NCBI GenBank assembly: GCA_021808105.1
Contig: JAKBCC010000001.1
Span: forward strand, 32,753-96,752
Direction: 5' to 3'
Length of the DNA stretch: 64,000 nt
Origin: Planctomycetota bacterium
Lineage (GTDB): Bacteria; Planctomycetota; Phycisphaerae; WQYP01
Under the pieces are notes generated by a model that saw only the letters and a program-made list of their open reading frames with translations, ran no database searches and was not told the DNA's origin. Both the position numbers and the translations under genes were made by a program. Positions within the stretch are counted from its first letter, which is position 1, and each line of letters opens with the position of its first letter. Shown one piece after another: positions 9,906 to 36,877 of this stretch.

Positions 9906-11156
9906 GTGTCGGTCGGCAGGCCGCGGATCGTTGACCGGCGCGACGAACAGGAGATTCACATGGCCAGGGAATATTCACCTTTCACGCCGGGCGTGCCTGT
10001 TCCCATTGAATTTTTCGCAGGTCGAGAGCGGGAGATCACTGAAATTGTGGACCGCGTGGCAAAGTCCGCGTCAAAAAAAATGATCGAGCGTATCTTCATT
10101 TCCGGGGACCGCGGCATCGGCAAAAGCTCGCTATGCCGCATGGCATTGCGCATTGCGGAGGAGAAACATGAGGTGTTGGGTTTGCATGTATTTCTCGGCG
10201 GCGTGACGTCTTTAGAGGAAATGGTGCGCCGCATATTCGAGCGGCTCTTGCAGGTCAGTCAGGACCGGAGTTGGTTTGAGGGCGTCAAGAAATTTCTGGG
10301 CAATAATGTTCGTGAGGTCGGCCTGTTCGGCGTTTCGCTGGCTTTCGAGGCATCGCCGCGGGACCTGGCGCAAGCCGTAGGGACACTGGGGCCGACGCTG
10401 CAAAAGCTTCTGGCGCAGATCAGCTCTCATCGAAAAGGATTGATGATTGTATTGGATGACCTGAATGGTCTGGCGGCGGATAGAGCGTTCGCCAATTGGC
10501 TTAAAAGCTTTGTGGATGAATTGGCAACCGGCCGCGAGAATCTGCCCCTGACCCTGATACTGGCGGGTATGCCCGAGCGGCGGAGCCAGCTGATTCAGAA
10601 GCAGCCATCGCTCGATCGCGTATTTGATGTTATCAACATAACTGCCTTCAACGAAGCGGAGACGCGACAATTTTATCAACAGGCTCTGGCGAAGGTCAAT
10701 GTGCGTATTTTGCCCGGAGCGCTGGATTTGTTGTGGCGCTTTTCCGGCGGATACCCGGTGTTCCTCCACGAGATTGGTGACGCAGTATTCAAGACTGATA
10801 CCGACGGCGTCATTGACGAAAACGATGCCCTTGCCGGCATAGTCGCGGCGGCGAAGATCATCGGCGTAAAATACATCGAGCCGAAGGTGCTCGATGCCAT
10901 CTGGAGCAAGCGTTACCGGCGGATATTGAAACGGATGGTAATCGCGCCCTTGCAGTTGCATTTTTCCAAAGCTGAACTGGTGGACCGAGTCTCGTCCGAC
11001 GAAGCCAGAGTATTGGATAATTTTCTACAGAAGATGAAACAGTTGGGCGTGGTGCAGCAATCCTCGGAGATGGGACGTGGAAAATACCGCTTTGCCAGCC
11101 AAATTTATGCGTTGTATTTCTATTTGCAGTCAGCGCCCCATCCGACTGCGGACTAG
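9906..11156 (+). CDS. Arch_ATPase/ORC-Cdc6-like P-loop NTPase (orphan)
   Basis: FAGREREITEI followed by Walker A GDRGIGKSS and Walker B MIVLDDLNG. C-terminal alpha-helical region. Lies 28 nt downstream of folA. Confidence 0.65.
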   Translation: MSVGRPRIVDRRDEQEIHMAREYSPFTPGVPVPIEFFAGREREITEIVDRVAKSASKKMIERIFISGDRGIGKSSLCRMALRIAEEKHEVLGLHVFLGGVTSLEEMVRRIFERLLQVSQDRSWFEGVKKFLGNNVREVGLFGVSLAFEASPRDLAQAVGTLGPTLQKLLAQISSHRKGLMIVLDDLNGLAADRAFANWLKSFVDELATGRENLPLTLILAGMPERRSQLIQKQPSLDRVFDVINITAFNEAETRQFYQQALAKVNVRILPGALDLLWRFSGGYPVFLHEIGDAVFKTDTDGVIDENDALAGIVAAAKIIGVKYIEPKVLDAIWSKRYRRILKRMVIAPLQLHFSKAELVDRVSSDEARVLDNFLQKMKQLGVVQQSSEMGRGKYRFASQIYALYFYLQSAPHPTAD

Positions 11157-13260: not shown

Positions 13261-14262
13261 TCAGCTTTCCAACGCATGATCAATAGCCTTCAACTCCTCG
13301 GCGGTAAAGGTGCGATTGCTAAGGGCTTTAACATTTTCCTGAATTTGCGACACCCGGCTGGCACCAATCAGTGCGGAGGTTACGCGCGCGTCGCGCAGCA
13401 CCCAGACCAGGGACATCTGGGCCAGGCTCTGGCCCCGGGCTAAGGCAATTTCATTGAGCGTTCGGATACGACTTTGCAATTGCGCGGTAATTCTGTCGGC
13501 CTTGAGAAAGCTGTACGATTTTGCAGCCCGCGAGTCTTCCGGAATATCCGTAAGATATTTATTGGTCAATAGCCCTTGCGCCAGCGGGCAGAACGCAATC
13601 GCTCCCACTCCTTGTTCCCCCAGCACATCCAGCAGTTCGCTTTCAACCCAGCGTTCAAGCATGGAATAGCGCGGCTGATGAATCAGACAGGGCGTACCGA
13701 GGGATTTCAAAATCGCAAACGCCCGTCGGGCCTCAGGGGGTTTATAGTTTGACAGCGCCACGTAAAGCGCTTTGCCCTGCCGCACGGCCGCGTCCAAAGC
13801 ACCCATGGTTTCTTCCAGGGGCGTTTCCGGATCGGGGCGATGGGAATAGAAAATATCCACATAATCCAGGCCCATGCGTTGCAGGCTCTGATCCAGGCTG
13901 GCCAGCAGATACTTGCGCGACCCCCAATCACCATACGGCCCGGACCACATCGTGTAACCGGCTTTGGTGGAGATAATCAGTTCATCCCGCCACGGATGCA
14001 GATCCTGCTGCAATAAGCGCCCGAAGTTTTCCTCGGCTGATCCGGGTGGTGGTCCATAATTATTAGCCAGATCGAAATGGGTAATGCCCAGGTCAAAGGC
14101 ACAACGCAGCATGGCGCGTTGATTTTCAAGCAGATCCACCCCGCCGAAGTTATGCCACAATCCCAAGGAAATTGCCGGCAGCTTAAGTCCGGATTTACCG
14201 CAGCGGTTGTATACCATTGCCTCATACCGGTTGGATGTCGGCACCCAGGGATTCATTTGCAT
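13261..14262 (-). CDS. aldo/keto reductase, L-glyceraldehyde-3-phosphate reductase (YghZ)-like
   Basis: YNRCGKSGLKLPAISLGLWHNFG closely matches the YghZ/Kv-beta AKR N-terminus. Confidence 0.85.
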   Translation of the reverse strand: MQMNPWVPTSNRYEAMVYNRCGKSGLKLPAISLGLWHNFGGVDLLENQRAMLRCAFDLGITHFDLANNYGPPPGSAEENFGRLLQQDLHPWRDELIISTKAGYTMWSGPYGDWGSRKYLLASLDQSLQRMGLDYVDIFYSHRPDPETPLEETMGALDAAVRQGKALYVALSNYKPPEARRAFAILKSLGTPCLIHQPRYSMLERWVESELLDVLGEQGVGAIAFCPLAQGLLTNKYLTDIPEDSRAAKSYSFLKADRITAQLQSRIRTLNEIALARGQSLAQMSLVWVLRDARVTSALIGASRVSQIQENVKALSNRTFTAEELKAIDHALES

Positions 14263-14408
14263 AAAAGCTCCAAAACAGTGTCACGTGGGCCGGCTCGTGC
14301 GGCCCACGGCAACCGCCATCACGACGAATTTATCCGTTCATGACCGGTTTGGGAAGTTCCAACCGGCACTCTGCTCCGCAACCTTGCAGTTCCAGTTCAA
14401 CGTCTAAG

Positions 14409-15767
14409 TTATGCAACAGGCGCAGCCGCCTGCCATTCGCGTGGTGTTTCCCAATGCCACATGGTAAATAATCCTACCGCCCAAAGTGCTAACGCGGAAT
14501 ACGTAACCAATCCCAGACCGCGAAGAATATAAAACGGCGGCGGCAGCACCGTCATAATGTGTGAGGCGGCAAAAAAAATCAGCACCCAGCCCAACGCCCC
14601 CCCCAGAGGAAGCATTCGGTCCTGTTCCCAGCGCGCCGCCAGAAGCGCTGTAATCAGGGGCAGCACCATACAGAAATAGTGCGGGTGACAAATGGGAATA
14701 ATCGGCATCATGATGGTGATCAGCACACCAAGGAACAGGTTGCGAAAAATCGGATCATCTTTTCGTCGCATAAATTCCACCAGCAGCGTGATGGCCACAA
14801 GGACAGCCGATATTCCCCAATGCGCCAATTTCATCCATTTTGCCGGGGCCGGGGCGTGGCGGCCAATGTAAAGCGTATGATCAATCATCGCTTCAAAGCT
14901 TGTTGAATCAGTCTTATTAATATCCAAAAGTTCCTTGTCACGGGAAGCGTTATGATTCAATCCAAACGCCGGCTCTAAAACCACTTGCGCAAAACGACGA
15001 TACCCGGCCACCATATGGTGCGGCCCCATGATAATCCCTGGGACAACCAGCAAGCCGGCAACCAACGCCGCCGCCATACCCAGAAGATAAGTTCCCCGCA
15101 GGCGCGATATTCCATAGAGAATTAAAAATCCGGGAAAAACTTTTAACGCTGCCGCCAGACCCGTGGCACATCCGGCCCAGAAGCGTTTTCGGGTGGCCAG
15201 AGCAGCCCCGGCAAAGCAAAACAGCATCAAAAGGACGCTATTGACCTGTCCGCGCACGACCGCCCGGCCAATGGCCGGAAGGCAGATCAATATAGGAATA
15301 ATACGAAGTGCCCACCACCTGCGGCAAAAGCGCGGCATGTTGCGCACGGCGGGATCGGTACACGTTTTTTCCAGGGCTTGCGCCAGCGCGTGGCTCCCCC
15401 ACCAGATACAGGCAATACTGATAAGAAACCAGACCGCCACGGAAACGGGATAGGGCAGTAACCCCGCGCGGCCGAATTTAGCCGGTGCGTCGGCCAGGGG
15501 ATACAAAAGCGTTGCCAGCAGAGGGGGATAATTGTAATGCCAGCCATTGGTATCGGTGACGTTGTAGGGATCTTTGTGCACACGCACGGCCCAGGCGGCG
15601 CGAAAATAGGTGTCAACATCCGTCATTCGTCGGCTAAGAAACGCGGACCGAACTTCCGTAACGCATCCGAAAGCCAGCACGCCGATCAGCAGCGCGATCA
15701 GACCCAAACGTTCAATTTTTGTCAGCGGGTCAAATGGGCCGATCTTCGTGGTGCTGGGTGTCTTCAC
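14409..15767 (-). CDS. DUF2029/GT87-like integral membrane glycosyltransferase
   Basis: About 11 predicted TM helices. An aromatic-rich cytoplasmic loop resembles mannosyltransferase-like GT-C enzymes. Family call is tentative. Confidence 0.45.
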   Translation of the reverse strand: MKTPSTTKIGPFDPLTKIERLGLIALLIGVLAFGCVTEVRSAFLSRRMTDVDTYFRAAWAVRVHKDPYNVTDTNGWHYNYPPLLATLLYPLADAPAKFGRAGLLPYPVSVAVWFLISIACIWWGSHALAQALEKTCTDPAVRNMPRFCRRWWALRIIPILICLPAIGRAVVRGQVNSVLLMLFCFAGAALATRKRFWAGCATGLAAALKVFPGFLILYGISRLRGTYLLGMAAALVAGLLVVPGIIMGPHHMVAGYRRFAQVVLEPAFGLNHNASRDKELLDINKTDSTSFEAMIDHTLYIGRHAPAPAKWMKLAHWGISAVLVAITLLVEFMRRKDDPIFRNLFLGVLITIMMPIIPICHPHYFCMVLPLITALLAARWEQDRMLPLGGALGWVLIFFAASHIMTVLPPPFYILRGLGLVTYSALALWAVGLFTMWHWETPREWQAAAPVA

Positions 15768-16375
15768 AACGGATCCTTATAGTGATTGAGCCGGTCGCTT
15801 CTGAAAAGCCGGCAAGTTTCCCGGCGCACGACACTGCGTGCGGCAACAGTTTTAGCTTGCCGGAGCCATTCCCGCAAATCTTAGAATTGCGCCCATGCGA
15901 TGTCAGGCGGAAGCAGGGCATTGCGTTGCGTATAAGCAGTCCAAGCTGCTACTGCACTAACTTTAGGCACGGGATTATCAGGATGTCGGCCCGCCGTACA
16001 TGCCTATTTTCAACGTCCTATTGATTCTTGAAGCGAGTCTGTCCAATAATCAGGCAAAACGTCCTGCTTTTTCCATATAAAATCCACTTCATAAAATTAT
16101 GGGCCGCAATTGTCCGGAGATTCTCCAAAAAAAATCCGCCGTATGTCGTACTGGCACGAGAGTTGCAATATATCTAACGTGCGGCAAGGACCGCGGGAGT
16201 GACAGAGAATGCAAGAACGTCGAGACCGAAAGAACGTGACGGTGCTCGAATGTGACAAGTAAATATGGATCGTGTATGGCGCAGGCCCGCCGCTTCCCGG
16301 GCACAACGTGGAGGTCTGTGCTGGTGAGATCTGCACCATACACTATCGCTTAAACTCGTTTCCTCCTCCGCCAGG

Positions 16376-16411
16376 CCGTGTGGACCTACCCTCCTCCACA
16401 CGGCTTTTTTA
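16376..16411 (+). terminator. intrinsic terminator-like hairpin (9 bp stem ccgtgtgga/tccacacgg, loop cctaccctcc, then CTTTTTTATT)
   Basis: Perfect 9 bp inverted repeat followed by a T-run on the + strand. No + strand CDS lies upstream within 600 nt. Confidence 0.5.
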
Positions 16412-16413
16412 TT

Positions 16414-16454
16414 GCGCTGAAAACTATTGTACTGAAAACGGCGCTGAAAACTAT
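16414..16454 (+). promoter_or_regulatory. direct repeats GCGCTGAAAACTAT x2 with a third CTGAAAAC, 60 nt upstream of citrate synthase
   Basis: Seen directly at 16414-16427, 16431-16439 and 16441-16454. Confidence 0.4.
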
Positions 16455-16513
16455 ACGATTCCACCCGCAGCGTGTATTATGAGCACCTCTGATGTGCGTT
16501 CAGGAGTAATCGT

Positions 16514-17653
16514 ATGACCCAGACCCCCCTGACTACCGTCGCCGCAACCAGCGGAGGCCTGCGCGACATCGTGGCGTTAAGCTCTTCGATTTGCTCAATT
16601 GAAAACGGCGTGCTCACCTATCGCGGTATTACCATCGACGAACTGGCGGAAAATTCCACGTTTGAAGAAGTGGTATTTTTGCTTTGGAACGCTCGGCTGC
16701 CCACGCGTGCGGAGCTGGACGATTTGCGACAATCGATCGCGGAGCAGGCACTCCTGCCTGAAGGTCTTCTGGCCATGATGAAGTCCTTTCCCCGTCGCAG
16801 CACACCGATGGAAGCTTTGCGCACCGCCGCCAGCGCCATGGCCATGTTTGACGCCGAATCAGAAGATATGTCCGCAGCGGCCAATCAGCGAAAATCCGTG
16901 CGGATTCTGGGCCAGATGGCCGGCGTCGTAGCGGCGTATGATCGTATCCGTAACGACCGCGAACCCCTGGCACCACGGCGCGACTTGAACCTGGCGGCCA
17001 ATTTTTTATACATGCTCACCGGACGTTCACCCGAACCATTGGCCACCCGTGCCCTGGACAAAGCCTATATTCTCCATGCCGATCACGAATTAAATGCCAG
17101 TACCTTCGCGGCGCGCGTCGCGGCGGGGACGCTGACCGATATGCACTCAGCACTGGTCGCCGCCATTTGCGCCTTAAAAGGCCCGCTGCACGGGGGAGCC
17201 AACGAGCAGGTCATGCGGATGCTTAATGAAATCGGCAACCCGGACACCGTGGACGCCTATATCCGGGCCAAGCTGGATAACCATGAAAAAATTATGGGTT
17301 TTGGACACGCGGTATATAAAAACGGTGATCCCCGCGCGCGGCACCTGAAGGAAATGTCACGCCAGCTCGGCACGCTGACCGGGCAGCAGCGCTGGTATGA
17401 AATGTCCGTGCGCATTGAAGACATGGTGGTACGAACCAAAAATCTAAAACCGAATGTCGATTTTTACAGCGCCTCGGTGTACCACTACCTGCACATACCG
17501 GCTGATCTTTTTACCCCGATTTTCGCCATCAGCCGCACCAGCGGATGGATTGCCCACATCCTGGAGCAATATTCGAATAACAAGCTTATCCGACCCCGCG
17601 CGGAATATATCGGGCCGCGCAATCAGCACTGGAAATCCTTTGAATCCCGCTGA
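16514..17653 (+). CDS. gltA: citrate synthase (or 2-methylcitrate synthase)
   Basis: GFGHAVYKNGDPRA and HEL active-site regions. AGGAG ribosome-binding site. Confidence 0.9.
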   Translation: MTQTPLTTVAATSGGLRDIVALSSSICSIENGVLTYRGITIDELAENSTFEEVVFLLWNARLPTRAELDDLRQSIAEQALLPEGLLAMMKSFPRRSTPMEALRTAASAMAMFDAESEDMSAAANQRKSVRILGQMAGVVAAYDRIRNDREPLAPRRDLNLAANFLYMLTGRSPEPLATRALDKAYILHADHELNASTFAARVAAGTLTDMHSALVAAICALKGPLHGGANEQVMRMLNEIGNPDTVDAYIRAKLDNHEKIMGFGHAVYKNGDPRARHLKEMSRQLGTLTGQQRWYEMSVRIEDMVVRTKNLKPNVDFYSASVYHYLHIPADLFTPIFAISRTSGWIAHILEQYSNNKLIRPRAEYIGPRNQHWKSFESR

Positions 17654-17698
17654 TGGGGTGCTTCTCACCAGGCCGCGAAATTAAATTCCGCAGCGCTT

Positions 17699-18403
17699 AT
17701 GGGGCTTGATGCTATGAACATTCTGGTAATTGGACCCCATCCCGACGATCAGGAACTCGCTATGGGCGCTACGATTGCACTGCTGACACGCCAGAAGCAT
17801 CACGTGACTTTGCTGGACATGACCAACGGGGAACCGACGCCTTTCGGTACGCCGGAAACGCGGGCCGCGGAATCCGCCGCGGCCGCCGGAATTTTGGGTG
17901 CCACGCGCCTGGCACTGGGCCTGAAAAATCGTGAAGTGACATGGAGCATTGCCGCCCGCCACGCGACCGCTTCGGTGTTTCGCCGCCTTCGACCGGATAT
18001 CGTATTTCTTCCCTACCCGAATGACGCTCATCCGGATCATCGTCAAGTGACGCAAATCGCGGAAGACGCGCGGTTTGACGCCAAGCTGACTAAATCCAAT
18101 ATTCCCGGTGAACCTTTTTATCCACCGCGATTAATCTACTATTTCTGTTCGCACCTGCGGTTTAATTTTCCGGCCTCTTTCTGCGTGGATGTTGCGGACA
18201 CCATGGATATAAAACGTCAGGCCGTGCGGTGTTACGCATCTCAGTTCAGTGCGGGAAGAGCCGTAGAAGCGCAATGGGAAATCCTCAAATACGTTGAGAA
18301 TATCAACGGATATTTCGGCGGGACCATTCGCCGCCCATTTGCGGAACCGTTTTTTGTACAGGAAACGCTGGGGTTAAAAACCCTGGATGGGCTGGCTTTT
18401 TAA
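17699..18403 (+). CDS. PIG-L/LmbE family deacetylase
   Basis: ILVIGPHPDDQELAMGATIA and HPDH motifs. Confidence 0.8.
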   Translation: MGLDAMNILVIGPHPDDQELAMGATIALLTRQKHHVTLLDMTNGEPTPFGTPETRAAESAAAAGILGATRLALGLKNREVTWSIAARHATASVFRRLRPDIVFLPYPNDAHPDHRQVTQIAEDARFDAKLTKSNIPGEPFYPPRLIYYFCSHLRFNFPASFCVDVADTMDIKRQAVRCYASQFSAGRAVEAQWEILKYVENINGYFGGTIRRPFAEPFFVQETLGLKTLDGLAF

Positions 18404-18452
18404 GTTAGGGTGTTGTAAGTTTTATTTTTTTAGCAACAAGGATAACGACCGC

Positions 18453-19586
18453 ATGACTAAAGAATCGCAAAGTGCAAAAGTAGAAGTCGCCGACTCCCCC
18501 CGCCGCGGAGGACCGCCGAAGATTCATAAATATTTTGAAGTTGTGACCAAGGTGGAGGGCAGCGATTTGCATATCAAGGCCGACGTACTGCCGCGGGTGC
18601 GCAAATCCGGACGTCTGGTTCCCACGACGGGCTCACCGATGACCAATGCGGAAATAGAAGCCATGGTCAAAGAAATGCTCACCGATGAGCAGTGGCATGA
18701 TTTCCTGCATCGCGGATCCCTGGATATCGCTTACGCTGTAACGCCCACCGAGCGATTCCGTGTCAACATTTTTCGCCAGCGCGGCATGGTCAGCATGGCG
18801 GCGCGGCGCATTAATCCGAAAATCCCCAATTTCGCGCAGTTGCACCTGCCCGAAGTTTTTGAAAAAATTGCGGAAAATGAACAGGGACTGGTCATGCTGG
18901 CGGGCATCACCGGCAGCGGCAAAAGCACCACGATTGCCGCAATGCTTCAACAGGTTAATGATCGGCGATCCTGCCATATTATCACCATTGAGGACCCCAT
19001 TGAATACACGTATGTAGATCAGAAGGCCTTCATTAACCAGCGCGAAGTCGGCCTGGATGTTGAAAGCTTTGAAATGGCGATTCGCTACATGATGCGTGAA
19101 GACCCCGATGTTATTCTGATCGGGGAAATGCGTGACCGCCTGACATTTCAGGCTGCGGTTCAGGCCACGGAAACCGGGCACATGGTTTTTTCCACCATTC
19201 ATGCCGCCAGCGCTCCGGGAGCGATCACACGCGTCCTGGAATTGTTTCCTCCGGATATGCACATGAACATGCGCCAGGCTATCGCCAACAATATGAAGGC
19301 GATTATTTTCCAGAAGCTTGTACCGGCCATTGATCCCGCCGTTGGCCGGGTACCGGTGGTGGAGGTCATGTTAAATTCACCTTCGGTCAGAAAATACATA
19401 CTTGAAGGCCGGGAAAATGAATTGACACAGGTCATCCGGTCGGAGCGCGGAGCCGGGATGATTGACTTTAATGATATGCTCTGCGAGCTGGTGGCCAGCG
19501 AAACCATTACCCATAAAGAGGCGTATATAGCCTCTCCCAATCCGGATGAATTGCGTATGCGCATGAAGGGTATTCGCACCAATTGA
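18453..19586 (+). CDS. pilT: type IV pilus retraction ATPase PilT/PilU family
   Basis: Walker A GITGSGKSTT, Asp box IEDPIE, Walker B ILIGEMRD, His box TGHMVFSTIHA. ATG at 18453 with AGGA ribosome-binding site. The longer ORF-track start adds a non-homologous extension. Confidence 0.9.
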   Translation: MTKESQSAKVEVADSPRRGGPPKIHKYFEVVTKVEGSDLHIKADVLPRVRKSGRLVPTTGSPMTNAEIEAMVKEMLTDEQWHDFLHRGSLDIAYAVTPTERFRVNIFRQRGMVSMAARRINPKIPNFAQLHLPEVFEKIAENEQGLVMLAGITGSGKSTTIAAMLQQVNDRRSCHIITIEDPIEYTYVDQKAFINQREVGLDVESFEMAIRYMMREDPDVILIGEMRDRLTFQAAVQATETGHMVFSTIHAASAPGAITRVLELFPPDMHMNMRQAIANNMKAIIFQKLVPAIDPAVGRVPVVEVMLNSPSVRKYILEGRENELTQVIRSERGAGMIDFNDMLCELVASETITHKEAYIASPNPDELRMRMKGIRTN

Positions 19587-19681
19587 CGCCCCCGGCGGAC
19601 TGGTTCCCGGGGATCAGGTACAGCGTCAAAGAGCATTCTGTATGGAAATCTCTGGCATAATTGGCCGGATCATGGTAAGTT

Positions 19682-21496
19682 TTGCATTTGGCGGCGCGCG
19701 GGATCAGTCCGATCCGGCGTGCGAAGGCAGGAATGATTGCTTTGATGTACGTAAATATAATTTATGTTGCGGCAGCGGTTGCGGTTCTGGTGCTGTGGGG
19801 CCGTTTTCTGGTCTGGATTGATAATGATCTTCCTAACATGCCCGAACAACCGGCGCAATTATGGAAAGGCGTGCTGCTGGCTTCGGTTGCCATCCTCCTG
19901 CTGATCTGGCTGCTGATTCCGAATTTCTGGTTTGCCCTGATATTAAACATATTTATTCCCGCAGCTTTGCTGGGTTATTATTGGCGGACGCGCGTGCAGG
20001 TGTTGGGATCCTCAGGGGACCTGCTGGGCGTTATATCCGGCCACATGGAGCAGTTTTCAGCCGGGCGGCAGGCAAAAAAATCTGTTTCACAACTGGGCTT
20101 GCGGTATGAAGGAAAGGGCGGACGGCCCCTGCCTCTGCCGGCGGTAGAAGACGCGGGCTACAACGGTGTCGTACTGCTGGATCAATTGCTGATACAGGGC
20201 CTGGAAAATCGGGCCCAGCGAATTGATCTGATGCCGTCGGATCAGGCTTATGAAATGTCGTTCAGCACCGACGGCGTGTCCTATCCACAATCCGGAATGC
20301 AGCGACCCAATGCCGAACCGCTGATTCAAGCCGTCAAACAGCTTACCGGCCTTTCGCTGGAAGAACGGCGGCGGCCGCAATCTGCGGTCTTTACCACCCG
20401 CGACGCGGACAATAATCCGGTACATTGGACCGCCAATACCAGCGGAACAACCGCCGGTGAACGGTTATGGCTTCAGATAAACGCCAAAGATAACTGGAAA
20501 ATGCCCCTGGATCATCTGGGCATGTCCTCCGAACAACTCACTGCGTTGCGTGAAGTGTTGCAGGGCAATGAAGGCCTGATTATCGTATCATCTCCCCCAC
20601 ACATGGGCCGAACAACCACGCTTTATTCCCTGCTGGCGAATCATGACGCGTATACCACCAGCATCAATACCTTTGAAATTAACCCCCGTGCAGATTTCGA
20701 ATCCATCTCCTTAACCCGATTCGACCCCGCGGCGGTCAATGCCAGTCACTCTAAAGCCTTGCAAAGCCTCATGCTGAAAGACCCGCATATTCTGATGGTG
20801 GCGCAATGCCCGGACGCGGCAACTGCGGAATTGATTGCGAAATATTCTCGTGAAGAGCATCGCGTTTACGTTGGCCTGCGAGCCAACGATGCCATTACCG
20901 CGCTGGAACTCTGGCGTAAGGTTTTGCCGGATAATCAGGTGGCGGCAGCGCCCTTGCGAGCGATCATCTCCCAGCGGTTGGTGCGGCTGCTTTGCCCGAC
21001 CTGTAAAATCGCCTATCAACCGGACGAGGCGATGCTGGCCAAGTTGAATTTACCAGTTGGCCGCGACCTCTCGGCATTTAAGGCCAATACGCAACCCGCG
21101 CGTGATCAAAAAGGGAACTTGATTAAGTGTCCGGATTGCGCCAGCCTGGGCTATCGCGGACAAAGCGGGATATTCGAAATCCTGGTAATCAATGACGAAA
21201 TCCGCAGGGCCATTGCCACCGGGCGGCCGGCTGAAGAACTCCGGACCTTGTCGCGTAAAAATAATATGATGTTCCTGGTGGAGCACGGATTCAGAAAATT
21301 TGCACTGGGGATTACCTCCATTCAGGAAGTGATTCGCGTATGCACCCCGGATAAAAAGCCGGCAGCCAGACCCAAAGCCGCTGGTTCAGGTGCTTCCCGC
21401 GCCGGTGCGGCGGGGAAGATGCCGGGGCAAAGCCAGGCCGGTGCCAGCAGTGCCGGTAATTCACGGGCCGGCGGATCGTCCGCTGGAAACAGTTAA
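19682..21496 (+). CDS. membrane-anchored GspE/PilB-like pseudo-ATPase (catalytic motifs degenerate)
   Basis: Three N-terminal TM helices. The GspE-like core has its Walker A replaced by SSPPHMGRTTT, Walker B by MVAQCPD and His box by EEHRVYVGL. The C-terminal CPTC...CPDC zinc motif is retained. Gly/Ala/Ser-rich tail. Confidence 0.7.
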   Translation: MHLAARGISPIRRAKAGMIALMYVNIIYVAAAVAVLVLWGRFLVWIDNDLPNMPEQPAQLWKGVLLASVAILLLIWLLIPNFWFALILNIFIPAALLGYYWRTRVQVLGSSGDLLGVISGHMEQFSAGRQAKKSVSQLGLRYEGKGGRPLPLPAVEDAGYNGVVLLDQLLIQGLENRAQRIDLMPSDQAYEMSFSTDGVSYPQSGMQRPNAEPLIQAVKQLTGLSLEERRRPQSAVFTTRDADNNPVHWTANTSGTTAGERLWLQINAKDNWKMPLDHLGMSSEQLTALREVLQGNEGLIIVSSPPHMGRTTTLYSLLANHDAYTTSINTFEINPRADFESISLTRFDPAAVNASHSKALQSLMLKDPHILMVAQCPDAATAELIAKYSREEHRVYVGLRANDAITALELWRKVLPDNQVAAAPLRAIISQRLVRLLCPTCKIAYQPDEAMLAKLNLPVGRDLSAFKANTQPARDQKGNLIKCPDCASLGYRGQSGIFEILVINDEIRRAIATGRPAEELRTLSRKNNMMFLVEHGFRKFALGITSIQEVIRVCTPDKKPAARPKAAGSGASRAGAAGKMPGQSQAGASSAGNSRAGGSSAGNS

Positions 21497-21564
21497 GTGA
21501 CACAGGTGTACGAATTGCTTGCCGGATTGCGATTCAAACGCCATAGCACATTGGAAGATCCTAG

Positions 21565-23199
21565 ATGATTCTTCAATTCATCGTACTGTTGTTCATCATC
21601 CTGTTTGCGCTTTATATGGCCAATGAGGGGCCGCTGTCCGCATTGCTCCTGTTGTGCGCCAGCTTCTTTGCTTCTACGTTGGCGATGGGTGTTTATCAGG
21701 CGTGGGCGAATCCGATTCTGAATCATCGTCCTGATTTTGCCTATGGTGTTACCTTTTTACTGGTGTTTTTTCTGGCGTTTTCGCTCATTCGAACGGCCTT
21801 TGACTACCTGATTCGCGGCGATGTGGAATTACCGCTCTGGCCCGGGCGAATCGTCGGGGGCGCGTTTGGCTTTTTTACGGCCATGATTTTAGTTGGCACG
21901 GTCATGGCGGGCGTGCAGATGCTGCCGCTGCCCAGCAGTATTCTGGGATACTCCCGGTACGACACCGCCGCAGATTTGGCCAGTAATTCCCCCAGTGGAC
22001 TGTGGCTGGACCCGGATGGCTTTGTGACCAGCTTGTGGGGCATGGTCAGCGGCCGCAGTATGGGCGGACATTCATTCAGCAAGTATAACCCGCAACCGTT
22101 GCGGCAATGGTTTGGCGACCGCTATACCGTTCAATACGCCGGTGCCAAAGCCCTTCCACCGAGTCTGTTGCATGTTCCTTTTGCCGGGCCGCTGCCGGCC
22201 GCAATGATTACGCGCTACGGCATTCCCGCCGCTGGAAAGCAGGCTATTTTGGTCCGCACGGAAGTCAATCATGGCAGCGCGCAGCCTGATGTAAGCTCCG
22301 ATCAGGGCTATTTTCGCCTGACACCTGCAGAGGTGCAGTTGGTCACATCCGGCGGAATGTATTTTCCCAGCGGTTATCTTGTAGATGGCCGCCGCTACGC
22401 GCCTCTGAAGCCGAATACCGCCCTGGTCGATGACTTCCGAACCGTGCATGGTCATCGGCGCGTGGTGCAAGACTGGATTTTCCTTATTCCCGCCAACGAC
22501 CAGCCCGTGGCATTGCACATGAAGCAGACGGCTACGGTGGACCTCACGGGCATGACCAGTGAAAAACTTGAGCCTCTGCGAGCCTCGGCTTATCCGCAAC
22601 TGCCTTACAACAACTCTTCTCTGACCGTGCACTTAGCCGCAGGGAATCTTTCATCCGCTCCGGTCGATATGTGGATTATTCCCGCCGGTACTCGCATGGC
22701 CGATGTTCGGTTTGTCATGCAACCCGCTTCCTCCAGACTCGGACGAATTCGCCGCGCCATTAGAGCCGGCAAACCGCCCTGGTCATCAGCCAATATCACC
22801 GGGACACCCAATACGTCCATGACCACCATGTATCACCAAAATGCCTTGAATCTCCGGCTGCAACATGATGCGGCGTGGGCGCAGATATTACCGGTATTAT
22901 TTGCATCGCAGGTTGGCACCAACACCAATAATTCACTCACACGCATGCGCAGCTACTTCCGCAGCAGCATCAAGCCGCTGCTGGCCGGTCAGCGCGTGGC
23001 GGCTAGGACGCTCAACGCACAGGGTTCGCTGAATAAGGCCATTAAAATTGGACCGGGCCAATATGACGTTATCATCTGGACGCACACCGCCGCACAAATG
23101 CGCGTCTGGCTCAAATCCGTCACTGTGCATGAGGGTGGCAAAGCCGCCGTACAGGTTTCATCAGGTGACAAAATTGTGAACTATTCAATAGCGCAATAA
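21565..23199 (+). CDS. CvpA-like membrane domain protein with large C-terminal extracytoplasmic domain
   Basis: The N-terminal 4 TM region resembles the colicin V production protein CvpA. The remaining 400 aa have no recognisable motif. Confidence 0.5.
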   Translation: MILQFIVLLFIILFALYMANEGPLSALLLLCASFFASTLAMGVYQAWANPILNHRPDFAYGVTFLLVFFLAFSLIRTAFDYLIRGDVELPLWPGRIVGGAFGFFTAMILVGTVMAGVQMLPLPSSILGYSRYDTAADLASNSPSGLWLDPDGFVTSLWGMVSGRSMGGHSFSKYNPQPLRQWFGDRYTVQYAGAKALPPSLLHVPFAGPLPAAMITRYGIPAAGKQAILVRTEVNHGSAQPDVSSDQGYFRLTPAEVQLVTSGGMYFPSGYLVDGRRYAPLKPNTALVDDFRTVHGHRRVVQDWIFLIPANDQPVALHMKQTATVDLTGMTSEKLEPLRASAYPQLPYNNSSLTVHLAAGNLSSAPVDMWIIPAGTRMADVRFVMQPASSRLGRIRRAIRAGKPPWSSANITGTPNTSMTTMYHQNALNLRLQHDAAWAQILPVLFASQVGTNTNNSLTRMRSYFRSSIKPLLAGQRVAARTLNAQGSLNKAIKIGPGQYDVIIWTHTAAQMRVWLKSVTVHEGGKAAVQVSSGDKIVNYSIAQ

Positions 23200-23218
23200 G
23201 TGTTACGGCATCAGGGTC

Positions 23219-23245
23219 TTGACCTGTGCGGAATTGTGCTACAAT
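23219..23245 (+). promoter_or_regulatory. candidate sigma70 promoter of sod (TTGACC-N15-TGcTACAAT)
   Basis: -35 TTGACC at 23219; extended -10 TGCTACAAT ending at 23245; about 70 nt upstream of the sod ATG. Confidence 0.35.
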
Positions 23246-23316
23246 AACAATACTGAACTGGCTGCCGCAGGTAAGTGGCTCATTGAATGGGTAAATTGTT
23301 TTTCAGGAGTACCGTC

Positions 23317-23952
23317 ATGGCTTTTCAACTTCCTTCGTTACCGTATGATTTCAGCGCTCTGGAACCTGTTATTGATACGCAAACCATGCAGATTCACCAT
23401 GGCAAGCATCACGGCGCGTATGTGACCAATCTTAACAATGCCATCGCCGGCAAGCCCGCATTAGAAGCCAAAAGCCTGGACGCGCTTATCGAAGATATCG
23501 CTTCGGTGCCCGAAGATATCCGCACAGTAGTGCGTAACAATGGCGGCGGCCATGCCAATCACAGCATGTTCTGGCAAATCCTGGCACCCAAGGGCAAAGG
23601 CGGCGGCGGCGAGCCGACCGGCGACCTTGCCGCCGCAATTAACTCCGCCTTTGGATCCTTCGCGGATTTCAAGACCCGCTTCGGGGAAGCCGCGACCAAG
23701 CGCTTTGGCTCCGGCTGGTCTTGGCTGGTTGTGAAGAATGGCAAACTGGCCATTGGTTCAACCGCCAATCAAGATAATCCACTGATGGGCGAAGCGGTTT
23801 GCGGCCTGTCCGGCAAGCCGATTCTGGGGCTGGATGTATGGGAACACGCCTATTACCTCAAATATCAAAATCGCAGGCCTGAGTACATCACCAATTGGTG
23901 GGAAGTGGTCAACTGGGCTAAAGTTGCCGAGCTGTATCAGGCCGCTAAATAG
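23317..23952 (+). CDS. sodA: Fe/Mn superoxide dismutase
   Basis: LPYDF..LEP, HHGKHH and DVWEHAYY motifs. AGGAG ribosome-binding site. Confidence 0.95.
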
Positions 23953-24305
23953 TCGCGGGGGACACAAGCACTTGACAGCTTTTTCATTACCTTTTTCCTA
24001 CCGCCTCCAGCTTGCGGCTGTGCTGGTTGTTTACATACTCTGTGCGGCATGTTTCCTGTGCATACTGCCGACGTCTGGGTCTATCCAATATCCCGGTTGC
24101 GGAAGAGCGGCAACGCAAATGCCGCCCCGAACGGACTCCAGAATTGACGCCACCAGTGTCGGCTTTGCATGGAACGGCGGCGGCTGCGATGGGAAGACGG
24201 ATATAAAAGTATTTAACCGGCAAGCTCCTGGCGACAGGCGCTCTTCTGTCAACAACCCGTAACTGGAACCTGCCCAACCTCCCCTTGTTTTTGGCTATGG
24301 AGGCC

Positions 24306-24314
24306 TGCTATAAT
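24306..24314 (+). promoter_or_regulatory. extended -10 element TGCTATAAT upstream of the GT2 gene
   Basis: Perfect TGnTATAAT at 24306-24314. Confidence 0.3.
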
Positions 24315-24430
24315 AGGTGGGGCTTGACGTGGAACACAGCAATCAGGTCGGCACCGTTTGGTTTCTTCCGAACAGTGCGGCACTGCGATTGCTCGCATAG
24401 GCGACGGTAGTCGGTGGTTGTCAGGCGTGT

Positions 24431-25480
24431 TTGCGGGAGTATTTCGTGGGACCGCGTATATCGGTTTGTATCCCGACGCATAACCGTTCGGGTTTACTGC
24501 AGAAGACGCTGAAGAGTCTGGCTGCGGTGGAACCGTGCCCTGATATAACTTGGGAAATCATTGTCGTCGCGAATTGCTGCACAGATGATACGCTGCACGT
24601 CGTCGATGCACTCAAAGAGCACGTACCTGTTAAGTTGTTGATAATCGAAGAAGCGGACCTTGGTGTGGTGGCAGCGCGAAACCGGGCGTTGCGACATGCA
24701 CGCGGCGAGATCATCGCCTTTTTGGATGATGATGTGCTCGTTCGTCCGCTGTGGTTGTGTGAACTTGTAAAAGCTTTTGACTCCCAACCTGATATGCTTG
24801 TGGGCCGGGTTTATCTGGACTGGCATACATTGTCCCGTCCTACTTGGTTTGATGCCGGTATGGGCCAGTATCTCGCGCAGGTTGATCTCGGTGATGTCCC
24901 CATGCTTTTGCAGAATCCATTGGGGGCGGGGGCTAATCTGGCGATTACCCGGGACATGCTGCAACGTATTGGAGGATTCTGCTGTCCGTTGGAGCGCACG
25001 GGTAAACGCACGGCCGGGGAAGATACTGACTTGATAGCTCGAGCGATGCGCGCCAAGGGGCGTGTGCTGTATGCCCCAACCGTGACGGTGGATCACTATG
25101 TAGCGGCGGCAAGATTGACAGTCCGATATCTGAGAGGGGTCGCGTTTGATGTGGGCATGGCGGAGTACCTGATCGCGCCGAGTATCAGCGCAGGTGAACT
25201 GGCGGCAAATCTGGGCAAGAAAATTCCGCGTTTGCTTCAACGATCGGTCCGCTGGCTGCTGGTAGTGCCATTTAATCAGCGGGCGGCGGCTTGTTTGCGC
25301 GTCAGCTTGGCAAAAACACGCGGAAATATTGGGGGAATCATGCTTTGTGCCTGGCGTAGTATGTTGGGGCGCTCGGTGAGGCCGCCCGTTTTCGGAGACT
25401 TGCCCGAGTTGTCGGCCACCATTGCTTCCGGAAATTCAGCGGCTCCGGCGGACCAATTAATGGCCGGTACGCATGGTTAA
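24431..25480 (+). CDS. family 2 glycosyltransferase
   Basis: SVCIPTHNRSG..L..L.S....P......EIIVV.N...D.T and FLDDDVL (DXD). Confidence 0.85.
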   Translation: MREYFVGPRISVCIPTHNRSGLLQKTLKSLAAVEPCPDITWEIIVVANCCTDDTLHVVDALKEHVPVKLLIIEEADLGVVAARNRALRHARGEIIAFLDDDVLVRPLWLCELVKAFDSQPDMLVGRVYLDWHTLSRPTWFDAGMGQYLAQVDLGDVPMLLQNPLGAGANLAITRDMLQRIGGFCCPLERTGKRTAGEDTDLIARAMRAKGRVLYAPTVTVDHYVAAARLTVRYLRGVAFDVGMAEYLIAPSISAGELAANLGKKIPRLLQRSVRWLLVVPFNQRAAACLRVSLAKTRGNIGGIMLCAWRSMLGRSVRPPVFGDLPELSATIASGNSAAPADQLMAGTHG

Positions 25481-28389: not shown

Positions 28390-28422
28390 CCGGTATTATT
28401 GGATGGTAATCGGGAAACCTTA

Positions 28423-30588
28423 ATGAAACCATTTTGGCGATTAATGCGGGGCGCATGGCCCTACCGGTGGCAGATCGTATTCTCGTTTTTGTGTGCCATC
28501 GGCGTGAGCTTGTCTTACGCCTCGGGGGTAGCCACGCTTTATCCCGTCATGAAAATATTCATGGGGGCCGAGGGGGTGCATGGCTGGCGGGATCAGACCA
28601 TTGCCCAGCAACGCCTGCATATTCAAACATTGGGGCTAAACGCCAGCGCGCGCAAGGGAAAACTCGCCATCAGCATTCTTGGCGTTGGTGCCAAGGCCCA
28701 GACGCCTTTGCATAGCATTCAAATTGGCGATCAAATTCGTAGCGTGCAAATTGTGTCTCCTACCGGGCAGACAATGGGGTCAGCTGATTCCTGGCTCAAA
28801 ATGATGTCTCTATTAGCCAACGCCAAGCCCGGCAGCACCGCGCAATTAACCGTAACCGCCAATGATGGCGCTGCACCGCGAACCCTGGCCGCCACACTTC
28901 CGCCGCTGAAATGGAATACACGCCTCTGGGCGTCCGCGGTGGCGGCTATGCCGCATCGCCGAATCTGGAGCCTGTTTTGGGTGGTGATGGTCTTTATCGG
29001 TTTGTGCATTGTGGGCAGCACGTTCCGGTATCTTCAGAGTTTCATAAGCGGTGTGGTCGCCAATAAAGTCATTATTGATTTGCGCCGCAGGCTCTTTAAT
29101 CACATCCTGGACTTGCCACTGTCTTATACCGCCAACCGAGGCACGCATGACCTAGTTAGCCGGGTTACCCTTGATACAGAGTTTGTCGCTGGTGGGCTGG
29201 GGACGGTGCTGGGAAAAGCGATTTTGGAGCCAACAAAATCGCTTGGCGTCGCGATTCTGGCGGTCATGGTGGATTGGCAGATGTTTCTGGCCATGCTGAT
29301 TGTATTGCCCACGATGGGCGTGGTGATCCGCAAATATGGCAAAAAAATGATGACCATGGGGGGCATGCAACTGCTGGGCTGGTCGGGAGTGGTGGATATC
29401 AGCAGCGAAGCCTTGGGTTCCATTCGGGTGGTCAAGGCGTATTCCGGCACCGGCTACGAGCGGCGCCGCTTTGCCACGGTGAACCGGGATCTGTTTCGGC
29501 ACATTCGGTATATTCAACATTACACGTCTCTTTCGCGTCCGCTGTTTGAGACACTTTCCATTATTCTCGTAAGCATTCCTCTGATGTGGGCGGCGGAACT
29601 GACATTCCATCATTTCATTGGGCGGGAGCAGTTCTTCCTTATGCTCGCTTGCCTCATTGCCATTTTCGAGCCCATGCGCAAACTCAACGATATCAACAGC
29701 CAAGTGCAAATGGCCAACGCGGGTGCTAGCCGCTGCTTTGAAATTTTGGATTTGCCTAAGGAACCGAATCTTTCCCCGAATTTGCCGAAGCTCGCGAGGC
29801 ACAGCCAGACCGTTCAATTTGAGCATGTCTCGTTTAAATATCCTGGCCACGATGAATGGGTCTTGCAAGATATTGACCTGAACGTCGTACGCGGAAAAAT
29901 GGTGGCGGTGGTTGGGAGCAATGGTTCGGGTAAAACCACGCTGCTTTCGCTTTTGCCGCGGCTGTATATTCCCACCGAAGGGCGAATTCGCATTGATGGC
30001 GTGGATACGGCCACGGTATCAGTAAATTCTCTGCGCCGGCAGATTGGCCTGGTCACCCAAGAAGCAGTTTTATTTTCCGATACCATCTATAACAACATCG
30101 TGTACGGGATGAGGCAGGCCACCAATGAGCAGGTCATGGAAGCCGCCCGGCGCAGTTATACCGATGAATTTGTCCGCGACTTGCCGCAGGGCTATCAGAC
30201 GCAGGTGGGGCAGGGCGGCACCCGGCTTTCGGGCGGGCAGCGGCAGCGGGTTGTGCTGGCACGAGCGATCCTGCGTAATCCATCAATTCTGATTTTGGAT
30301 GAAGCCATGAGCCAGGTGGATTCGGACAGCGAAGCGAAAATTGCCTCAGCGCTGGAGGACTTTATGCAAGATCGCACGACGTTTATTATCGCCCATCGTT
30401 TCAGCACAGTGATGTCGGCGCATGTGGTGGTATGTCTGGAAGCCGGCCGGATCGTGGGCTATGGCACGCATCAGGAACTCTTTGCGAGCTGCGTGCCTTA
30501 TCGGCGGTTGTATGATACGCAGCTTCTGGTTCGCGATGGCGCGCCGCTTGAAAAAGCACTACCGTATGCCGTTGGCGCACTGGAATAG
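28423..30588 (+). CDS. ABC exporter, fused TMD-NBD (MsbA/PglK-like) with a large TM1-TM2 loop insertion
   Basis: Six TM helices then an NBD with Walker A GSNGSGKTT, signature LSGGQRQR and Walker B ILILDE. About 130 aa inserted between TM1 and TM2. Confidence 0.85.
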   Translation: MKPFWRLMRGAWPYRWQIVFSFLCAIGVSLSYASGVATLYPVMKIFMGAEGVHGWRDQTIAQQRLHIQTLGLNASARKGKLAISILGVGAKAQTPLHSIQIGDQIRSVQIVSPTGQTMGSADSWLKMMSLLANAKPGSTAQLTVTANDGAAPRTLAATLPPLKWNTRLWASAVAAMPHRRIWSLFWVVMVFIGLCIVGSTFRYLQSFISGVVANKVIIDLRRRLFNHILDLPLSYTANRGTHDLVSRVTLDTEFVAGGLGTVLGKAILEPTKSLGVAILAVMVDWQMFLAMLIVLPTMGVVIRKYGKKMMTMGGMQLLGWSGVVDISSEALGSIRVVKAYSGTGYERRRFATVNRDLFRHIRYIQHYTSLSRPLFETLSIILVSIPLMWAAELTFHHFIGREQFFLMLACLIAIFEPMRKLNDINSQVQMANAGASRCFEILDLPKEPNLSPNLPKLARHSQTVQFEHVSFKYPGHDEWVLQDIDLNVVRGKMVAVVGSNGSGKTTLLSLLPRLYIPTEGRIRIDGVDTATVSVNSLRRQIGLVTQEAVLFSDTIYNNIVYGMRQATNEQVMEAARRSYTDEFVRDLPQGYQTQVGQGGTRLSGGQRQRVVLARAILRNPSILILDEAMSQVDSDSEAKIASALEDFMQDRTTFIIAHRFSTVMSAHVVVCLEAGRIVGYGTHQELFASCVPYRRLYDTQLLVRDGAPLEKALPYAVGALE

Positions 30589-30688
30589 AACTGACGTGTC
30601 CGTTGGAAATCCTGTGTCGGCTCTGGCAGCTTGCGTTTCTGTGTATTCGGGGAAATTATTAACTTGCAACACCTTTGGAGAATCGTTC

Positions 30689-36611: not shown

Positions 36612-36877
36612 GCCGCAAAAGCTGGGAGAAGCGAAACGGGGACGCAGCTAGTTTTTGAGGATAGCAAGACAAAACGGCCGCCCGAATTTGGCATTGGCAG
36701 CATCCGAAGCAGCGTCCGAAGCTTGAGACCATTGGTTATAGCTTCTACACTTTCACGAATTATTTTGGCTTCAACTACGCCATATTTTTTAGCGGTGGTT
36801 AAAAACAATCCGTTCAATGGCTGAAATTCCACCACACAGTGGTTGATATTCAACCGGTTAACGGATATAATTCCAGC

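Follow-up and report, generated by a model that had tools for sequence, protein, structure and literature searches.

A stretch of 64,000 nucleotides (nt) from a Planctomycetota genome (Phycisphaerae, WQYP01; assembly GCA_021808105.1, contig JAKBCC010000001.1, positions 32,753 to 96,752; hereinafter the window) carries three consecutive open reading frames (ORFs) on the + strand at 18453–23199. These code, in order, for a PilT-type ATPase with intact catalytic motifs, a membrane-anchored relative of the PilB/GspE secretion ATPases that has lost its catalytic residues (hereinafter the pseudo-ATPase), and a CvpA-like membrane protein with a large orphan C-terminal domain. The best explanation of our observations is that the three genes constitute an operon-like module specific to Planctomycetota (Table 1). 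The ATPases of the secretion superfamily (PilB, PilT, GspE and relatives) have been described as soluble catalytic hexamers that alternately dock on the PilC/GspF platform, and we found no report in the literature of a deeply conserved integral-membrane pseudoenzyme of this superfamily.

The pseudo-ATPase matches PF00437 (T2SSE) over residues 165–552 with 153.9 bits (gathering threshold 24.9; profile positions 11–370 of 370) and scores below the equivalog cutoffs of both GspE (TIGR02533, 194.6 against 630.25 bits) and PilB (TIGR02538, 174.9 against 675.65 bits). On its sequence it is a T2SSE superfamily member in the broad sense only; it falls short of PilB and GspE in score, in catalytic residues and in its N-terminal domain. 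An earlier reading of this DNA, made from the sequence alone (hereinafter the original prediction), had proposed a GspE fold, and this is borne out by an AlphaFold2 (AF2) model based on an alignment of 58 family sequences (predicted local distance difference test, pLDDT, 89; predicted TM-score, pTM, 0.74), whose top Foldseek match is PilF (5oiu_B, E 5e-38, TM-score 0.87). The model comprises helices at residues 5–31, 37–57 and 61–91, a linker helix (93–116), an N2-like domain (137–245), a C-terminal domain (CTD) with the ATPase fold (262–533) and a disordered tail. Matches to PilF, PilB and EpsE range from E 5e-38 to 1e-33 (TM-scores 0.72–0.88), as against only ~1e-19 for PilT and DotB. The tetracysteine motif, a feature of the PilB/GspE and BfpD clades only (PMC5424180), is invariant in the family; both this clade marker and the Foldseek ranking point to PilB/GspE ancestry, and sequence and model together indicate that the pseudo-ATPase descended from the PilB/GspE clade of secretion ATPases.

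In this lineage the soluble N1/MshEN domain has been exchanged for three transmembrane (TM) helices. No PF05157 match to an N1E/MshEN-type soluble domain is found in the pseudo-ATPase, residues 1–91 being occupied by TM helices instead; the canonical PilB neighbours at other loci do match MshEN. The three N-terminal helices of the original prediction are recovered by hydropathy and AF2 alike. By hydropathy, the same pattern of one segment followed by one double-length hairpin is seen in nearly all of the ~105 short family members and in 0 canonical PilBs, and within the TM region W18, W40, P59 and R83 each reach 90% conservation or more. An N-out/C-in topology is the likely one, because Arg81 and Arg83 follow TM3 and the ATPase-fold domain is necessarily cytoplasmic. 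At the other end of the protein, the tetracysteine (CPTC...CPDC) and the Gly/Ala/Ser tail noted in the original prediction are likewise in place, the former intact and the latter (residues 551–583) predicted to be disordered.

The catalytic positions were compared in three alignments, namely a phmmer alignment to the Thermus thermophilus PilF, a MAFFT alignment of 121 sequences (120 database homologues) and a column-wise comparison of 31 canonical PilB/GspE proteins with 150 family members, restricted to positions at least 90% conserved among the 31 canonical proteins. In the window protein, GPTGSGKS of Walker A is replaced by SPPHMGRT (Lys to Arg), IEDPVE of the Asp box by FEINPR, VGEIRD with the catalytic Glu of Walker B by VAQCPD (Glu to Gln), and TGHLVIATLHTND of the His box by EEHRVYVGLRAND; the catalytic set is thereby replaced throughout (R289, R315, Q354, R379, T229 and Q244). 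The destruction of Walker A, Walker B and the His box, as originally claimed, is reproduced in all three alignments and is wider than had been claimed; Walker residues that proper alignment might have restored were looked for, and their loss was confirmed in each alignment. Misalignment as the cause of the motif loss can be set aside, as the three independent alignments agree and the structure superposes on PilB/PilF.

The degenerate motifs are present in every one of the ~105 homologues of 540–600 amino acids (aa), while GPTGSGKTTT, IEDPIEY, VGEIRD and TGHLVLSTLHTND are confined in the MAFFT alignment to ~1000-aa PilB matches. Across the 150 members the losses extend to G283, T285, G286, S287 and K289 of Walker A; D312, P313 and E315 of the Asp box; G353, E354 and R356 of Walker B; T370, G371 and H379 of the His box; and the arginines at 172, 174, 196, 229, 244 and 389. 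The arginine-finger columns among these are 97–100% Arg in canonical PilB/GspE and lost across the family. Canonical positions that are retained include D176, G177, K198, Q212, G259, G288, T291, T292, E311, D346 and P347, together with G522, T524, E528 and R531 towards the C-terminus and the QRLVR motif, whose R414 is found in 150/150 members; G234, Y375 and W390 are invariant residues specific to the family.

In the Geobacter PilB, R271 and R286 are the arginine fingers, E357 is the Mg-coordinating Glu, E395 the catalytic Glu, H413 and H420 the His-box histidines and R455 an Arg making an inter-chain contact (McCallum et al., PMC5424180). Going by spacing and alignment offsets, we infer that positions 229-244-315-354-372-379-414 of the pseudo-ATPase correspond to R271-R286-E357-E395-H413-H420-R455, respectively; R414 would then be the equivalent of the inter-chain R455. 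The residues of the Zn module and of the inter-subunit scaffold have been kept. By these alignments all residues required for ATP hydrolysis have been lost from the pseudo-ATPase. ATP binding has probably been lost too: even this is doubtful because, in addition to the three named motifs, the Asp-box Glu that binds Mg and the two arginine fingers are missing. It might be countered that ATPase activity persists at a non-canonical site, e.g., one in which Arg stands in for the Walker A Lys, given that G288, T291, T292 and E311 of the P-loop/Asp-box region are still conserved and that a ‘GRTTT’ is common in the Phycisphaerae clade. However, the ‘Lys’ position is freely variable across the family (Arg 84, Leu 20, Met 13, Val 9, Gln 9, Ala 4), which speaks against a second, conserved site for nucleotides, and the gamma-phosphate His, the two arginine fingers and the Glu residues for catalysis and Mg binding have all gone together, residues that PilT-like ATPases are reported to share without exception and to need (PMC5424180). 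We regard this possibility as very improbable and essentially excluded.

The pseudo-ATPase is under strong purifying selection. Among close orthologues (dS 0.66–1.3), the ratio of nonsynonymous to synonymous substitutions (dN/dS) is 0.036–0.071 for its gene, 0.018–0.052 for pilT and 0.07–0.13 for the CvpA-like gene; for comparison, a neighbouring superoxide dismutase (SOD) gene gives 0.05–0.07. Hence, it is a maintained pseudoenzyme and not a relic. The loss of catalytic motifs is the first expected product of decay, and a decaying, non-functional pilB/gspE duplicate would display it; the dN/dS values (about 0.04–0.07 at a dS of 0.7–1.3) and the ~150 intact full-length homologues nevertheless refute that origin, and the family-specific invariant residues, the conserved TM anchor and the confident AF2 model stand against it as well, making it about as improbable as any reading that we weighed and essentially excluded.

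These ~150 homologues span 28–95% identity and, where named, all come from Planctomycetota, mostly from metagenome-assembled genomes (MAGs) of Phycisphaerae or Phycisphaerales. A scan of reference genomes with a narrower family alignment recovered the closer clade in 41 species-level genomes and otherwise returned canonical GspE of other phyla. The distant members (28–36% identity) belong to other planctomycete MAGs, and the taxonomic breadth of this distant clade rests on metagenome names since the scan recovered the closer Phycisphaerae clade only. With a profile made from the distant members, the family scores at least 514 bits and canonical GspE at most 283 bits, a clean separation. In public collections the proteins are labeled ‘GspE/PulE family’, ‘T2SS/T4P ATPase’ or even ‘TadA’; secretion and pilus ATPases are consequently over-counted in planctomycete MAGs.

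The upstream gene codes for a canonical PilT, as originally called, with all of its ATPase motifs intact. It scores 390.8 bits against TIGR01420 (pilT_fam; cutoff 319.1) with model positions 2–343 of 343 aligned, and contains Walker A GITGSGKSTT, Asp box IEDPIEY, Walker B and catalytic Glu IGEMRD and His box TGHMVFSTIHA. An alignment shows the same catalytic motifs in the window PilT and six distant orthologues, and the PilT partners at the module loci have intact motifs in all cases. Its closest PDB structures, all full-length matches, are the T. thermophilus PilT2 (5fl3), the Geobacter PilT4 (6ojx) and PilU (9n32). At the AIRNLIRE-type helix, a PilT motif, it has SVRKYILE, with partial conservation only.

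The third protein was originally described as a CvpA-like 4-TM domain with a 400-aa extracytoplasmic domain, and its CvpA-like character is upheld. On its own it matches PF02674 (Colicin_V) at residues 5–125 with 24.8 bits, slightly below the gathering threshold of 29.3, and the same profile is matched by 16/16 aligned homologues (E ≤ 0.01, best 1.5e-10), several of which carry the NCBI name ‘CvpA family protein’. TM helices are predicted by AF2 at residues 2–21, 23–47, 56–82 and 95–119, in a region of low model confidence. The ~410-aa domain that follows is an orphan: an exhaustive HMMER search of 1.84 billion clusters recovered only 58 representatives, nearly all of them 540–600 aa long with the domain starting directly after the TM domain, and Foldseek returned no PDB relative of its fold below E 0.04. 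CvpA has a predicted periplasmic C-terminus, the C-terminal part being species-variable and possibly binding periplasmic partners; it has been proposed as a channel or periplasm-sensing protein, with its function stated to be unknown (bioRxiv 10.1101/2020.09.25.314492). Because the C-terminus of CvpA is predicted to be periplasmic, the orphan domain may likewise be placed in the periplasm.

The conservation of the unit was assessed at 54 loci (L numbers below are our locus labels): 46 non-redundant in clustering, plus three later wide views (L091 being a re-read contig of L038). A CvpA-like homologue lies directly downstream of the pseudo-ATPase at 46/46 non-redundant loci and matches the window protein by BLAST with E 1e-10 to 1e-151, the most distant loci included. 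A PilT-type gene with intact motifs lies directly upstream at 38/45 evaluable loci, over 28–95% identity of the pseudo-ATPase. Absent synteny, which would have spoken against the original prediction, is thus not what is seen, the order of the trio being kept; at the same time, it is the CvpA-like protein, and not PilT, that accompanies the pseudo-ATPase without exception. Neither a PilT nor a CvpA-like neighbour occurs at any of 39 canonical GspE/PilB loci of other phyla. The flanks vary by clade—citrate synthase, PIG-L and SOD in one, HisF and MurD in another, and elsewhere transposases, flagellar genes or a tRNA synthetase—and because the surroundings change from locus to locus, it is the trio, or the pair at the least, that is conserved as a unit. 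Gaps at the module loci are short, frequently 10–40 nt between the PilT and pseudo-ATPase genes, with stop/start overlap in some (e.g., 9629/9626 in L003).

In the window, the PilT start at 18453 (377 aa) is the choice of public gene callers, and an identical product named PilT exists in public collections. For the pseudo-ATPase, the 604-aa ORF of the original prediction is present from TTG 19682, and a further alternative start is ATG 19733; the start is likely ATG 19745, i.e., M22 of the TTG-19682 reading, giving 583 aa, since homologues begin MYVNIIY and public gene calls give the same 583-aa product. The gap from pilT therefore measures 158 nt from ATG 19745 and 95 nt from TTG 19682, where 96 nt had been given, and that from the pseudo-ATPase to the CvpA-like gene 68 nt rather than 69 nt. 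A promoter and terminator scan returned no signal above chance between the three genes, and matches to Rfam elements in window 16000–24500 were sub-threshold only and all within coding sequence.

Table 1. Coordinates in the window of the three genes of the module and of their domains and motifs (aa positions of the pseudo-ATPase count from ATG 19745).
Feature	Position	Strand	Basis
PilT/PilU-family hexameric ATPase gene, 377 aa, catalytic motifs intact	18453..19586	+	TIGR01420, PDB relatives, alignment
Membrane-anchored PilB/GspE-derived pseudo-ATPase gene, 583 aa	19745..21496	+	PF00437, AF2, Foldseek, dN/dS
Pseudo-ATPase: three predicted TM helices, aa 2-25, 42-58, 61-80; TM2/TM3 hairpin around Pro59-Asn60, then cytoplasmic Arg81/Arg83	19748..19984	+	Hydropathy, AF2
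Pseudo-ATPase: N2-like domain, aa 137-245; arginine-finger positions substituted (T229, Q244)	20153..20479	+	AF2 limits; column comparison
Pseudo-ATPase: Walker A, degenerate (VSSPPHMGRTTT for canonical xTGPTGSGKTTT); Arg instead of Lys at aa 289	20585..20620	+	Three alignments
Pseudo-ATPase: degenerate Asp box TFEINPRADF (canonical TIEDPIEY), Arg at Mg-coordinating Glu position aa 315	20669..20698	+	Alignments, PMC5424180 mapping
Pseudo-ATPase: Walker B with catalytic Glu, degenerate (DPHILMVAQCPD for canonical DPDVIMVGEIRD); Gln instead of Glu at aa 354	20780..20815	+	Alignments, PMC5424180 mapping
Pseudo-ATPase: degenerate His box EEHRVYVGLRAND (canonical TGHLVLSTLHTND), Arg at gamma-phosphate His position aa 379	20852..20890	+	Alignments, PMC5424180 mapping
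Pseudo-ATPase: intact tetracysteine Zn motif (C417, C420, C462, C465), preceded by QRLVR (R414)	20993..21139	+	Four Cys in 150/150
Pseudo-ATPase: disordered Gly/Ala/Ser-rich C-terminal tail, aa 551-583; length not conserved in family (540-600 aa)	21395..21493	+	pLDDT < 50
CvpA-like membrane protein gene, 544 aa, invariant downstream partner	21565..23199	+	PF02674 in 16/16 aligned members; locus survey
CvpA-like protein: predicted CvpA-type 4-TM domain, aa 1-125; conserved D80/D86, G98-G99-x-x-G102	21565..21939	+	Pfam, AF2, invariant columns
CvpA-like protein: orphan C-terminal domain, aa 131-544 (~410 aa); beta-rich 200-340, mixed alpha/beta 350-544	21955..23196	+	HMMER, Foldseek, AF2

The original prediction had suggested that the dead paralogue is a regulatory or scaffolding partner of PilT, a role that is plausible and compatible with these data. 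We tentatively propose a more specific version, to which we give somewhat less than an even chance: the pseudo-ATPase and the CvpA-like protein would assemble as a platform in the inner membrane, and the PilT hexamer, as the sole catalytic subunit, would dock on the dead, ring-competent ATPase domain that this platform holds in the cytoplasm. The ATP-driven movements of PilT would thereby be membrane-tethered and either passed on to the periplasm-facing partner or gated by it, and the periplasmic domain of this partner might provide either the output or the input; type IV pili might be the target of the output, or it might be something other than pili. Several points weigh against this proposal. 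Seven loci (L016, L029, L031–L034 and L049) have the pseudo-ATPase and CvpA-like pair with no pilT within 5 kb, from which it follows that PilT may be dispensable or supplied in trans. The oligomeric state of the pseudo-ATPase is read from a few retained residues, the periplasmic placement of the orphan domain derives from the predicted topology of CvpA, and the AF2 model of the CvpA-like protein is only partly confident (pLDDT 66), being good for residues ~200–235, 300–330 and 350–544 only. Moreover, the genomes with the module are all uncultured MAGs.

The module could be a type IV pilus accessory, the dead PilB copy occupying the PilB docking site at or near the pilus base, or tethering PilT, and so biasing the machine to retraction, with the CvpA-like protein linking a periplasmic cue. 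The bona fide PilT/PilU-family membership of the ATPase and the PilB/GspE derivation of its neighbour fit this, as does the presence of a canonical MshEN-PilB 2–3 kb downstream of the module in L036, L042 and L044 and of PilB and PilC ~5 kb upstream in L008. Since canonical PilB/PilC genes are separately present in some module genomes, the dead copy is not a PilB replacement. However, these neighbouring PilB genes are separated from the module by the unrelated SOD gene, and most loci, including the 64-kb window, have no pilin, PilC, PilM/N/O or secretin gene within 5–10 kb; pilus-machinery genes are found nowhere in the window and none recurs across the loci. The pseudo-ATPase also lacks the N1/MshEN domain, by which PilB and GspE contact PilM/GspL. 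On balance we consider a pilus accessory rather unlikely. The trio could also be a self-contained machine unrelated to pilus fibres, in which the PilT hexamer would dock on a ring of membrane-anchored dead PilB subunits acting as stator or transmission, with their TM helices passing the ATP-driven movement through the inner membrane to the orphan periplasmic domain of the CvpA-like protein; this is unlikely in our estimate and, if true, it would represent a new class of mechanotransmission made from pilus-motor parts and confined to Planctomycetota.

The distribution of pilT admits a further reading, in which the functional unit is the pseudo-ATPase and CvpA-like pair only, e.g., as a sensor or a regulator of a CvpA-type channel, and the adjacency of PilT is inherited gene order. 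The pair is kept at 46/46 loci with an adjacent PilT missing at 7/45, stop/start overlaps fall mainly at the junction of these two genes, and a role as channel or periplasm sensor has been put forward for CvpA itself (bioRxiv 10.1101/2020.09.25.314492). Inherited order nonetheless sits poorly with a PilT adjacency that is kept from 95% down to ~28% pseudo-ATPase identity while all other neighbours change, and with the 10–40-nt gaps between pilT and the pseudo-ATPase gene; we doubt that the pair is the whole unit. As a side observation on the pair, one MAG (MAS4.bin39) contains two copies of it, L034 (JAJZNX010000086) and L049 (JAJZNX010000012), neither of which adjoins a pilT; these could reflect a duplication or strain mixing in the bin.

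Among known systems, the pseudo-ATPase is closest to PilB/GspE (PDB 5tsh, 5oiu and 1p9w), with which it shares the N2 and CTD fold (TM-score up to 0.88), the tetracysteine, QRLVR and the inter-chain Arg at ~25% identity over ~400 residues. Unlike these, it is without N1/MshEN, has three TM helices and has lost the catalytic set, stays under a third of the NCBIfam equivalog cutoffs, and is not encoded with PilC/GspF or pilins. The PilT–PilU couple resembles the module in comprising two adjacent secretion-ATPase paralogues, one presumably dependent on the other. PilU, however, is soluble, catalytically active, of the PilT clade and dependent on PilT, whereas the second ATPase here is of the PilB/GspE clade, membrane-anchored and, by its motifs, catalytically dead. 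The GspL/PilM–PilN tethers combine a membrane anchor, a cytoplasmic dock for a hexameric ATPase and a periplasmic extension, which is what we propose for the pseudo-ATPase acting with the CvpA-like protein; the GspL/PilM fold is actin-like and unrelated, and in the module the tether would be the dead ATPase itself. The E. coli CvpA (162 aa) has a counterpart of the predicted 4-TM Colicin_V-type domain of the third protein, with a conserved Asp and a Gly-rich helix, and a variable C-terminus predicted to be periplasmic, but has neither the ~410-aa orphan domain after the TM domain nor the strict coupling to a pseudo-ATPase. By analogy only, the archaellum FlaI–FlaH–FlaJ (ArlI/ArlH/ArlJ) also joins an active ATPase of the secretion superfamily to a partner that has a nucleotide fold but does not hydrolyse and to a membrane protein of polytopic type (PMC5019145). 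FlaH differs in being RecA/KaiC-like, in still binding ATP and in not being a PilB paralogue, and FlaJ is a PilC homologue unlike the CvpA-like protein. None of the PilT–PilU, FlaI–FlaH–FlaJ or GspL/PilM analogues includes a TM-anchored dead PilB or a CvpA protein.

The original remark that no characterised equivalent was known agrees with our searches of the literature, curated families and defence models. No model specific to the pseudo-ATPase exists in NCBIfam, Pfam or PADLOC, neither full-text searches of the literature nor a 2024 review of PilB cofactors yielded a description of the family or the gene trio, and no solved structure of the family was found. Membership of the trio in an anti-phage defence system was considered and dropped, no system being matched in PADLOC: its models gave weak generic P-loop matches for PilT only (mad8 23.5 bits, HerA 22 bits) and none for the other two proteins. 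If the pseudo-ATPase docks PilT, it would provide a second way to attach and control the PilT motor, and a first functional partner would have been proposed for a CvpA-domain protein, a widespread family of unknown function. The Planctomycetota have an unusual envelope and division biology, and the module is a defined target in this phylum, whose envelope machines are poorly understood.

The genes around the module recur within clades. Over the 46 loci the most frequent are SOD (25), PIG-L deacetylase (23) and citrate synthase (18); these three are confined to one clade, and HisF/MurD to another, and we therefore set them aside as inherited gene order and not as parts of the module. In the window, a PIG-L-family deacetylase gene (17699–18403) lies directly upstream of the trio and an Fe/Mn superoxide dismutase gene (23287–23952) directly downstream; this surrounding was noted for L001, L036, L042, L044, L092 and L093 too. 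Within the Phycisphaerae clade both persist over 42–95% identity despite changes in the other neighbours, and a functional link is possible. In the distant clade, the order HisF-like, PilT, pseudo-ATPase, CvpA-like, MurD is seen in three separate genomes (L003, L005 and L090); the adjacency of MurD, a peptidoglycan ligase, may point to a link with the envelope or cell wall, or else reflect shared ancestry. In a single locus, L093, a gene for a PilZ domain (cyclic di-GMP receptor type; 14244–14696) lies past the downstream SOD, with flagellar rod genes upstream.

The rest of the window contains several features of separate interest. A large polysaccharide-synthesis region with glycosyltransferase (GT) genes of the GT2 and GT4 families (24431–51281 and 61478–62992) shows no linkage to the module elsewhere among the genomes. 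It includes an ATP-binding cassette (ABC) exporter (28399–30588), a Wzx-type flippase (61478–62992, − strand) and two giant multi-domain enzymes, namely a methyltransferase+GT2+GT2+GT4 protein of 1586 aa (30422–35182, + strand) and a sulfotransferase+WbsX+GT1+GT2 protein of 1598 aa (38991–43790, − strand). Two paralogous AAA_14 + DUF4143 ATPase genes lie within the glycosyltransferase region (36839–38125, + strand; 47683–48954, − strand). An 809-aa ORF with no Pfam match (44118–46547, + strand) lies where the GC content of the window peaks (0.61 versus ~0.55). Unrelated to the module are a STAND/AAA_16 NTPase gene (9906–11156, + strand) and a gene with an IrrE/M78-peptidase domain (730–1872, − strand).

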